Assembly (NCBI GenBank): GCA_050950825.1
Contig: JBMNIH010000007.1
Span: forward strand, 96,001 to 160,000
DNA length: 64,000 nt
Origin: Clostridia bacterium
GTDB lineage: Bacteria > Bacillota > Clostridia > JAAYHZ01
Direction of reading: 5' to 3'
In this document: positions 50,945-52,784 of the stretch, one piece after another
How the letters are laid out: each line of letters begins with the position of its first letter
How positions within the stretch are numbered: the first letter of the stretch is position 1
Notes under the pieces: generated by a model
What the model was told of the DNA's origin: nothing
Seen by the model: the letters and a program-made list of their open reading frames with translations, nothing else
Database searches by the model: none
Position numbers and translations under genes: made by a program

Positions 50945-50973
50945 TGTTTATCACATCCGCCGGATAATAAAAA

Positions 50974-51246
50974 GATCGTGCACCAGCCTCCGATCCGTAG
51001 AATGTACGCATGTAATGCTCCGAACTCAAACCGGGTTGCCTTACGGCACATATCGGACATTGCTTACCGCTGCTTCCTTCCGGACCTGACGGGGTTCACA
51101 AGCCTCTATTGCGCAAGGGCCGGTTCTCAACGTCCGGCTGCATACAGCAAGACCACACTCTCCCAAAAACCTCGGGCATGGAATTCAACCCTGCTATAGC
51201 GGATTGCAGGTTACAGGACACCGCTAACTTCCCGTCTAGCACGATC
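50974..51246 (-). ncRNA. ffs: Signal recognition particle RNA, large (Alu-containing) type
   Basis: Minus strand contains TCAGGTCCGGAAGGAAGCAGC and a 5' Alu-like GTGCTAGACGGG..; ends pair; lies upstream of dnaX. Confidence 0.93.
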
Positions 51247-51331
51247 ATGTACATTATACAGGAAGACGGATGACTTTGCAACAGAAATACGGGAAAAGGG
51301 AATGTCAATAACAGGAAAAAGAAAAAAGAGC

Positions 51332-51469
51332 AAAAAAATTTGCACTCTTTGGATATAAACGAATGAATGATTCCTGATTGGTCGAGTGCAAATGTCAAAT
51401 CAATTATTCCATATAATTTACATTATAATAAGGAGGAATAAAAATGAAAATAGTATTATTGGTTGTGAC
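51332..51469 (-). ncRNA. Candidate sRNA copy A with anti-SD motif
   Basis: Own promoter (TTGCAT-16-TATAAT, TG-extended), TTTTCATTTTTATTCCTCCTT motif, and a TGCACTC..GAGTGCA hairpin followed by a T-tract. Confidence 0.55.
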
Positions 51470-51581
51470 AGTTATATTATAGCACGCTCTCTTTGAAATG
51501 CAAGTACTTTTTCATTAAATTTTTAACAATGTTGTTTCAATTTGTTTAAAAATATGTAAAATAAAATTCTGCAAAAAGAGT

Positions 51582-51717
51582 AAAAAAAATTGCACTCATT
51601 TTATAATCGAATGAATAATTCCTGATAGTTTGAGTGCATTGATTTAAGATCACTAACTCTACTAATAGTAATACTAAAAGGAGGAACAAAAATGAAAATA
51701 GTATTATTAATTGTGAC
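51582..51717 (-). ncRNA. Candidate sRNA copy B with anti-SD motif
   Basis: TTGCTT-16-TATAAT (TG-extended); same motif and terminator, offset ~250 bp from copy A. Confidence 0.55.
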
Positions 51718-51911
51718 AATACAATTATATCAAGTATCAACAAAAAAGCAATACTTTTACGGAAAATTAAGAAATTTTTCTCATGGAATTCATAGGAAAA
51801 CAAAAGCTTATTCCACGAATTTCCATGGATCTCCAATTGTGCAGAATGAATGTTTACAGACTTTGTAAAACCGGTATAATATAATTGACTAACAGAAAGG
51901 AAGAATCGGAC

Positions 51912-52784
51912 ATGAGTGTAAAAAAAGCAATTATCCCGGCTGCCGGGATGGGAACTCGATTTTTACCGGCAACAAAAGCTCAGCCTAAAGAAATGTTACC
52001 CATTGTAGATAAACCGACAATTCAATACATCATCCAAGAAGCGGTGGAGTCGGGTATAGAAGATATCATCATCATTACGGGTCGTGGAAAACGCGCCATA
52101 GAAGACCATTTTGACAAATCCTACGAGTTGGAAGACATGCTTCGTAAGAAAAACGATATGGAAAAATTAGAGCTCATCGAAGCCATATCCAATTTGGGGA
52201 ACATCCACTACATCCGCCAAAAGGAACCGAAGGGCTTAGGCCATGCCATTTATTGCGCCCGATCCTTTATAGGGAACGAGCCTTTTGCCGTCTTGTTAGG
52301 GGACGACATCGTACGGTCGGACTATCCTTGCTTAAAGCAGTTGATTGATGTGTACGACCGATACAAAACATCCATTGTAGGAGTACAGCACGTGGACCGC
52401 GAAAGCGTAAGCAAATACGGAATTGTTTCCTGTACTCCCATCGAAGAGCGGGTGTTCAAGGTAAACGATATGGTGGAAAAACCCTCCGTAAAATCGGCGC
52501 CTTCGGATATCGCCATATTAGGCCGATATATTCTTTCTCCGGAAATTTTTAAAGAATTGGAACACCTTCCTCCCGGAAAGAACGGCGAGATTCAACTGAC
52601 GGATGCCATGCTGTCATTGTTGAAAAAAGAAATTATTTACGCTTACGAGTTTGAAGGAAAGCGCTACGACGTAGGCGATAAATTGGGCTTTTTGAAGGCC
52701 ACCGTCGATTTTGCTTTGGAAATGGATGATATCAAGAAGGATTTTTTAGATTACTTAAAAGCCGTTGTGGAAAAAACACAATAA
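51912..52784 (+). CDS. galU: UTP-glucose-1-phosphate uridylyltransferase
   Basis: PAAGMGTRFLPATKAQPKEMLP and GEIQLTDA. Confidence 0.97.
   Translation: MSVKKAIIPAAGMGTRFLPATKAQPKEMLPIVDKPTIQYIIQEAVESGIEDIIIITGRGKRAIEDHFDKSYELEDMLRKKNDMEKLELIEAISNLGNIHYIRQKEPKGLGHAIYCARSFIGNEPFAVLLGDDIVRSDYPCLKQLIDVYDRYKTSIVGVQHVDRESVSKYGIVSCTPIEERVFKVNDMVEKPSVKSAPSDIAILGRYILSPEIFKELEHLPPGKNGEIQLTDAMLSLLKKEIIYAYEFEGKRYDVGDKLGFLKATVDFALEMDDIKKDFLDYLKAVVEKTQ

Follow-up and report, generated by a model that had tools for sequence, protein, structure and literature searches.

What is encoded by a duplicated intergenic element that lies directly upstream of a housekeeping RNA gene, and does its conspicuous likeness to an inverted translation start carry a function? 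This question is raised by a 64-kb stretch of a Clostridia genome (the window, meaning the whole stretch of DNA analysed here), which carries two similar units, A and B, on the minus strand between galU and the gene for the RNA of the signal recognition particle (SRP). It is well supported, and in our judgement highly probable, that A and B are small RNA (sRNA) genes, each with its own promoter and terminator. The original prediction had described two minus-strand units at a period of about 250 bp, with promoters, a conserved block, a stem with U-tract and a total length of about 137 nt, and this description was correct in every particular, with 248 nt between the 5' ends and lengths of 136 and 138 nt. 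As to function, we favour, with some reserve, a reading in which A and B are tandem paralogous trans-acting sRNAs that would mask translation initiation regions by a block complementary to the Shine–Dalgarno (SD) sequence and the start codon (anti-SD/anti-AUG block).

A widespread sRNA family linked to the SRP RNA gene

The genome that holds the window (G000; 3.55 Mb in 11 contigs) has no further copies beyond units A and B. In the collection searched, the window's own order is represented by three species genomes (G000, G001 and G002, the latter two being metagenome-assembled), and family matches were obtained in 3/3 of them. All three species share the gene order galU, unit A, unit B, SRP RNA gene and dnaX, on the strand opposite to galU, with orthologues of unit A in G001 and G002 and orthologues of unit B in loci L058 and L057. 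In the alignment of these six units (A2), A and B form separate orthologue groups, and the duplication therefore predates the three species. Within the window, the unit alignment has a mean column identity of 83%, and only three differences between A and B fall within the 5' 40 nt. Between the three species, nucleotides 1–40 of the RNA are 100% identical (92% between A and B) and the anti-SD/anti-AUG block is invariant, while the remaining RNA reaches 69–84%, the promoter regions 57–76%, and the spacers upstream of, between and after the units 38–66%. This region-specific pattern shows, as judged from the alignments, that the units have been under selection, as had been suggested from the window.

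The covariance-model search for more Clostridia copies that the original prediction had proposed revealed a family wider than expected. A first covariance model, built from the six units (R1), gave full-length matches in other Clostridia families. With a second one, built from 13 sequences (R2), matches were obtained in 104 of the 149 genomes sampled from the G124-centred order (in 97 at E <= 1e-6), the family tallies being f25 32/38, f55 33/38, f68 9/9, f72 5/5, f79 4/4 and f50 0/22. In an even sample of the whole class, 14 of 151 genomes were matched, in families f1, f4, f22, f24, f25, f41 and f55. The other genomes of a phylum sample (150) held no credible copy; the one weak match of 77 nt found there (L160) came up after alignments A3 and A4 had been built and was judged false without inspection. 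A further match, L073, was judged false as the combination of a gene start and a terminator and was never aligned. The small order to which the window belongs is the only one in which the tandem pair was seen, and among the matches listed in the G124 order no second copy lies in tandem. The claim of a sibling-sRNA family thus stood insofar as the tandem pair is real; as a local family it did not, the family being widespread and usually single-copy.

Linkage to the SRP RNA gene (ffs) was assessed for the 41 copies, from 38 loci, of alignment A4. For 36 of these, the SRP RNA gene follows in the same orientation at a distance of no more than a few hundred bases, as judged by motif search (28 copies) or by Rfam (eight copies: L068, L090, L077, L082, L097, L099, L100 and L101); the families concerned are f1, f4, f24, f25, f55, f68 and f71. 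Beyond these 36, the SRP RNA 5' end is visible by eye at the cut end of the locus in the two L057 copies, and in L069 a contig end cuts off the downstream side. An additional f24 copy, L142, is also SRP-linked. These results show a widespread, usually single-copy Clostridia sRNA family in genetic linkage with the gene of SRP RNA, the sRNA gene normally being single, immediately upstream of ffs and co-oriented with it.

Another set of matches, in f22 (L070, L141, L143, L144 and L145) and f41 (L072), keeps UUCCUCCUU-like and GGAAUUAUU-like motifs together with the terminator. None of these matches was found to have an SRP RNA gene next to it, which for L070 and L072 refers to the flanking DNA examined and for L141 and L143–L145 to weak matches. 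L070 and L072, the only two of this group that were checked, also lack the extended -10 or the UUUUCAU part. These matches may represent a related but distinct sRNA group; L070 and L072, lacking the extended -10 and the full block, are nevertheless included in A3, A4 and R2. Separately, four g26 genomes (G178, G181, G183 and G185) carry a second, much weaker R2 match of 39–42 bits on the same contig, at a comparable distance (45–65 kb) from the SRP-linked copy in several species, which may be a diverged paralogue unlinked to SRP RNA. The sRNA–SRP RNA pair of G046 is preceded on the same strand by a tRNA gene (L068, 2751–2823). The same tRNA...dnaX setting is described for the C. acetobutylicum SRP locus in the part of PMC3025663 that deals with it.

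In A4, an extended -10 element TGnTAnAnT stands 5–8 nt ahead of the conserved 5' G in 39/41 copies, a GCAC..GUGC hairpin with U-tract follows in 40/41, and the block core is present in 38/41. The terminator helix is 98.9% paired, and three of its pairs are changed on both sides (13 sequences), giving the variants GCACUC/GAGUGC, GCACUU/AAGUGC and GCACC/GGUGC; its covariation score exceeds that of 500/500 shuffles and of all slid controls. Could the repeats simply be a neutral duplicated A/T-rich intergenic stretch with promoter- and terminator-like features arising by chance? The low G+C content (0.23–0.32) makes TATAAT-like and U-rich motifs common, and a simple scan returned six promoter-like sites against 3.5 expected. 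Neutrality is nevertheless refuted by the covariation of the terminator, by full-length covariance-model matches in more than 100 genomes of several families, by region-specific conservation across species and by conserved synteny, so that its probability is practically nil.

The covarying helix also bears on the strand. It contains G–U/U–G wobbles in five cells against one non-pair, and wobbles are likewise found in helix 1 of the A type; these would be C–A mismatches on the plus strand. Together with the promoter and the terminator, they point to the minus strand. A function of the plus strand had to be considered, as it displays a perfect SD sequence, spacer and ATG and could thereby supply a short hydrophobic peptide (MKIVLL...) with its ribosome-binding site (RBS) and start codon. 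Such a peptide would be a type I toxin whose antitoxin is the minus-strand RNA; alternatively, the strand would form an SD-sequestering leader resembling SAM-III. Hydrophobic residues are indeed read from the first 9–10 codons in f1, f4 and f68, and the plus strand yields a sub-threshold SAM-III match (19.1 bits, E = 0.17). The open reading frame (ORF) that starts at the complementary ATG, however, comprises only three codons in 22/40 copies and otherwise 11–58 aa in frames that shift with the length of the U/A run; in f1 its lengths are 12, 12, 12, 17, 52 and 58 aa, with the stop inside the minus-strand -10 box. Being mostly three codons long and frame-shifting, it is therefore not a gene. 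Neither a conserved plus-strand promoter nor synonymous changes were found, and the wobble pairs argue against this strand as stated. We consider the peptide reading largely refuted, and a functional plus strand very improbable altogether. The two specific candidates were rejected likewise: a SAM-III (SMK box) riboswitch scores 19.1 bits against a gathering score of 45, and on the plus strand unit A and then galU come after unit B, where the known family sits before metK; a type I toxin–antitoxin pair of the Sib/Ibs kind would call for a conserved hydrophobic toxin ORF opposite the sRNA. Sib/Ibs loci are intergenic repeats of about 140 nt in which an sRNA lies opposite a short hydrophobic ORF with a strong RBS; the repeated units of similar length are thus a likeness, while the opposite-strand ORF, in contrast to Sib/Ibs, is not conserved here.

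The conserved block and its candidate targets

Common to all lineages are only the promoter, the block UUUUCAUUUU(U)(G/A)UUCCUCCUU(U) and the terminator hairpin, in which GCAC/GUGC is invariant and the A/U-rich loop often contains GGAAU. A 5' leader G(U/C)CACA(G/A)CCAAUAAUACUA is shared by f1, f4, f55 and f68 and is missing from f25. The block is exactly complementary to AAGGAGGAA, an A-rich spacer of 5 nt, AUG and a second codon rich in A, confirming what had been read from the window, namely the complement of an RBS, AUG and A-rich codon. It is also predicted to be accessible. In partition-function folding of 39 copies, the block has a mean unpaired probability of 0.77 and its CCUCC one of 0.85, compared to 0.57 and 0.47 for the flanks; the value for the block of unit A is 0.90. 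In the first model, helix 1 would tie up part of the block; its pairing reaches only 78%, and there is no 5' helix that every family shares (f55 CAGCCA/UGGCUG; f25 a local 5' hairpin; f1 other pairings). By these models, an accessible conserved block is how a seed would be expected to look.

As the most likely mode of action, we propose a mechanism in which the functional core would be the largely unpaired, near-invariant UUUUCAUUUU(U)(G/A)UUCCUCCUU. This core would pair with translation initiation regions that approach the ideal, having a strong SD sequence, an A-rich spacer, AUG and an A-rich codon; typical candidate messages would begin with MKK or MKI, such as those of lipoproteins and of the solute-binding proteins of ABC transporters. 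By pairing, the RNA would keep the 30S subunit from binding and thereby repress translation, possibly with the help of Hfq, the gene of which is present in G000, and the three A/B differences within the 5' 40 nt may shift target preferences. Taken by itself, such masking of translation starts is plausible.

The search for targets gave leads of limited strength. In the 38 f55 genomes, 14 sites lie within two mismatches of the 22-nt block complement, and 12 of them start real ORFs, which encode seven ABC solute-binding proteins, three other lipoproteins, one secreted DUF5667 protein and one GH3 enzyme. With a control pattern (the same SD sequence and ATGAAAAA, with any 8-nt spacer), 5/23 were solute-binding proteins. 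In G000, genes with a lipobox-like motif account for 12 of the top 100 and 22–26 of the top 200 candidates, compared to 2–10 and 8–17 for 12 shuffled seeds, with 148 such genes among 3234 genome-wide; since the regular expression used is leaky (false positives include Rossmann-fold starts), this roughly twofold enrichment can be taken as a hint only. SBP_bac_1 genes number only four in G000. A pattern search allowing at most three mismatches returned five sites outside the sRNA genes (one in G000, one in G001, three in G002), and the reverse complement of the 5' 48 nt gave best BLAST matches of only 16–20 nt in the genome. Solute-binding lipoprotein mRNAs are thus a weak lead, and the block resembles a start region generic to MKK-type messages of secreted proteins and lipoproteins, with specific targeting being a prediction.

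Several results weigh against the masking of translation starts by units A and B. No perfect match to the 22-nt block complement occurs outside the sRNA genes in the 38 f55 genomes or in three f1 genomes. Duplex energies of the 5' region with 3234 crudely defined start regions of G000 were at the top no better than those of shuffled seeds (real minima -33.6 and -31.7; shuffled minima -28.9 to -35.8). The top G000 candidate, a PcsB-like M23 peptidase encoded behind ftsX (C3:394887-396014; Pfam), was rejected, as the orthologous start regions in G001 and G002 show only partial complementarity. The enrichment of solute-binding proteins (7/12 against 5/23) is marginal, with a two-sided Fisher p of 0.059, and no target was established by the searches run. 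Single-sequence folds are not significantly stable (z -1.3 to -2.3), the counts come from alignments that had been fitted to the covariance model, and contigs from RNA libraries, which are unstranded and may hold DNA, bridge terminator A into unit B. Finally, an invariance over 24 to 40 nt goes beyond the usual requirements of a seed, and another function is thereby conceivable.

This last point leads to a different kind of ligand. The RNA might bind a protein or the ribosome rather than mRNAs, for instance by mimicking the CCUCCUUU tail of 16S rRNA or a U-rich ligand and so sequestering a factor in the manner of 6S RNA or CsrB-type RNAs. Besides the extent of the invariance, the invariant GCAC/GUGC of the terminator goes beyond what a plain terminator needs, a GGAAU-type motif recurs in its loop, the promoter looks constitutive, the gene keeps company with housekeeping RNA genes, and a conserved perfect target is missing. 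A protein ligand, however, would not require an exact complement of SD sequence, spacer and AUG, and the predicted single-strandedness of the block is seed-like. No partner is known, and the RNA differs from CsrA sponges in having only one or two GGA motifs. We regard a protein or ribosome ligand as unlikely and hold to pairing with mRNA starts.

If pairing with mRNA starts is accepted, it could be tied to the genomic address. In this more specific and quite unlikely version, the RNA would be a housekeeping riboregulator coupled to the SRP RNA gene, throttling initiation on secreted, lipoprotein and solute-binding-protein messages in step with SRP or secretion capacity. The block would then be an antisense image of the start consensus of signal-peptide messages (strong SD sequence, AUG, AAA and U-centred hydrophobic codons), its action would form the translation-initiation counterpart to elongation arrest by the SRP Alu domain, and the coupling would explain the near-universal synteny with ffs in carriers. 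The genes of the SRP pathway itself are not complementary, the start regions of ffh, ftsY, secA and secY ranking 658th or lower of 3234.

Comparison with known sRNAs

The proposal of an undescribed family was borne out by the Rfam scan, in which no Rfam 15 family matched the units (positions 51200-51950, E <= 10) or four diverse carriers (E <= 1). Rfam 15 holds models of LhrC, RoxS/RsaE and AbcR, and none of these appears among the six listed matches (E <= 10) or in the other Rfam scans; the csRNA model likewise gave no match, either in 51200-51950 (E <= 10) or in the four other carriers (E <= 1). By the tests run, the units are homologous to none of csRNA, LhrC, RoxS/RsaE and AbcR. The comparison with csRNAs and LhrC that had been drawn is thus no more than an analogy.

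LhrC1-5 of Listeria and RoxS/RsaE of Bacillales are Gram-positive sRNAs that pair with SD regions via C/U-rich single-stranded motifs, RoxS/RsaE belonging to the few Firmicutes sRNAs whose conservation extends beyond the genus. Their seeds are short CCC/UCCC loop motifs, in contrast to the one long linear complement of SD sequence, spacer, AUG and second codon observed here. The csRNAs of Streptococcus carry stretches complementary to SD sequence and AUG and repress several mRNAs, transporters included; their genes are CiaR-dependent and clustered near ruvB, whereas units A and B display a plain extended -10 promoter and have the SRP RNA gene as conserved neighbour. Units A and B further differ from csRNAs by their occurrence in Clostridia and by the lack of an Rfam match, and resemble them as sibling sRNAs of similar size, some of which are encoded in tandem according to the passages on streptococcal csRNAs in PMC4211561. 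The same passages describe AbcR1 and AbcR2 of Agrobacterium and Sinorhizobium as homologous (>65% identical) tandem sRNAs that control mRNAs of ABC-transporter periplasmic binding proteins (PMC4211561). Their tandem architecture corresponds to that of A and B, and their target class to the weak lead obtained here; they belong, however, to the Rhizobiales within the Alphaproteobacteria, have no sequence or Rfam relationship to the units, whose targets are predicted only, and differ from a family that is mostly single-copy and ffs-linked. In the portions of the clostridial sRNA literature drawn on here (PMC3025663, PMC3879012, PMC3649979, PMC6429828, and the 2020 bioRxiv and 2023 EMBO J work on C. 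difficile), no sRNA upstream of SRP RNA was found, with the limit that supplementary tables could list one under a locus name.

In Gram-positive bacteria, base-pairing sRNAs that are conserved beyond the genus are few, and the sRNA catalogues of clostridia are for the most part species-specific. The family described here is a candidate core sRNA of one Clostridia order (104/149 genomes) and of several other lineages, distinguished by how broadly it occurs, by a fixed location next to the SRP RNA gene and by a putative seed that mirrors a whole ideal initiation region. The covariance model can be used for annotation, and the CCUCC/CAU block offers a handle on post-transcriptional control in solvent-producing, cellulolytic and digester Clostridia. 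It also raises the question of why an anti-initiation RNA should be kept beside ffs.

Gene anatomy, RNA libraries and a possible role in cis

The features of the locus are collected in Table 1. Transcription of each unit would start at a separate promoter of the housekeeping type, which combines a weak -35 with an extended -10 (TGnTATAAT), and would end at a separate intrinsic terminator. Both assignments rest on direct reading and conservation, the simple promoter and terminator scan having picked up neither the unit promoters (only 4/6 positions of the -35 agree) nor the terminators (loops longer than 8 nt).

Table 1. Positions in the window of the sRNA units, their neighbours and contigs from RNA libraries
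Feature	Position	Strand	Details
Unit A sRNA, paralogue type A	51582-51717	-	136 nt; R1 137.7 bits
Unit A promoter	51724-51751	-	-35 TTGCTT 51751-51746; 16-nt spacer; extended -10 TG-a-TATAAT 51732-51724
Unit A conserved 5' G	51717	-	
Unit A anti-SD/anti-AUG (anti-RBS) block	51678-51708	-	complement of AAGGAGGAAC-AAAA-AUG-AAAAUAGUAUUAUU
Unit A intrinsic terminator	51582-51638	-	8-bp stem UGCACUCA/UGAGUGCA, 51638-51631 with 51598-51591; long A/U-rich loop containing CAGGAAU, then 8 U at 51589-51582
Unit B sRNA, paralogue type B	51332-51469	-	138 nt; R1 135.3 bits
Unit B promoter	51476-51503	-	-35 TTGCAT 51503-51498; 16-nt spacer; extended -10 TG-c-TATAAT 51484-51476
Unit B conserved 5' G	51469	-	
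Unit B anti-SD/anti-AUG (anti-RBS) block	51430-51460	-	
Unit B intrinsic terminator	51332-51390	-	stem UGCACUC/GAGUGCA, 51390-51384 with 51347-51341, extendable to 10 bp; long loop containing CAGGAAU, then 7 U at 51338-51332
Large bacterial SRP RNA gene	50976-51244	-	Rfam RF01854, 170.4 bits
SRP RNA promoter	51281-51253	-	TTGCAA-17-TATAAT; listed by simple promoter scan
galU	ORF listed from 51885	+	divergent from the sRNA units
X15 contig	51381-51701		depth 10
X16 contig	51357-51521		depth 3
X16 contig	51466-51701		depth 5.9
X17 contig	51376-51646		depth 4.8
X19 contig	51343-51555		depth 6.2
X19 contig	51526-51664		depth 10

Six metatranscriptome runs contain 37–48% of the sampled words of 50950-51950, and four runs from four studies were mapped. 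Contigs from all four RNA libraries fall on 51343-51701 at depths of 3–10; being unstranded and possibly derived from DNA, they document presence in RNA libraries, not a defined transcript, and constitute weak evidence. Contig ends of two studies coincide at 51701, 16 nt inside the predicted 5' end, which gives a weak hint. None of the contigs listed lies on 51256-51342 or on 51732-51901, the latter upstream of unit A, and these gaps are not used as evidence.

The bridging contigs make read-through possible and thereby bear on a role in cis, in which read-through, promoter occlusion or processing of a co-transcript would set the level of SRP RNA and the anti-RBS look would be incidental. The co-oriented location immediately ahead of ffs, kept in 36/41 copies and seven families, fits such a role, as does the C. 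acetobutylicum SRP transcript, for which the relevant part of one report gives about 400 nt by Northern blot, longer than predicted (Chen et al. 2011, PMC3025663). However, the SRP RNA is served by a consensus-like promoter of its own that lies past the terminator, in the window as well as in L066, and among the contigs listed none joins unit B to SRP RNA. Some copies are moreover located away from SRP RNA (L072, the f22 matches and second copies elsewhere), and the invariant block would be left unexplained. We therefore judge a role in cis to be quite unlikely and retain trans-acting sRNAs as the preferred reading of units A and B.

The contigs also revealed strain variants of the sRNA locus. 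Position 51660 reads C instead of T in the contigs of three of the four runs (X17 being without cover), and the U-tract of unit A is one base shorter at 51582 in those of all four. Farther downstream, contigs of 845–1168 nt join the 3' part of the SRP RNA to the start of dnaX in 3/4 runs (X15, X16 and X19; 50950-51244, minus strand), which is compatible with co-transcription of ffs and dnaX.

Upstream of the f55 copies (L066, L074-L095 and others), a conserved TTAATAT is found at about -39 to -33 before the sRNA 5' end, and TAG(C/A)AAAT lies nearer to the -10, in the region where a canonical -35 would be 4 nt off; these motifs may be an UP-like element or a regulator site. Elsewhere in G000, an ORF of about 404 aa occurs in copies at C6:113885, C6:140702, C8:55172, C11:2735, C4:566040, C8:161407 and C8:165265, several of them identical and with identical start regions (MTQFNITI / MAQFNITI), and this multi-copy ORF looks like an insertion-sequence transposase.

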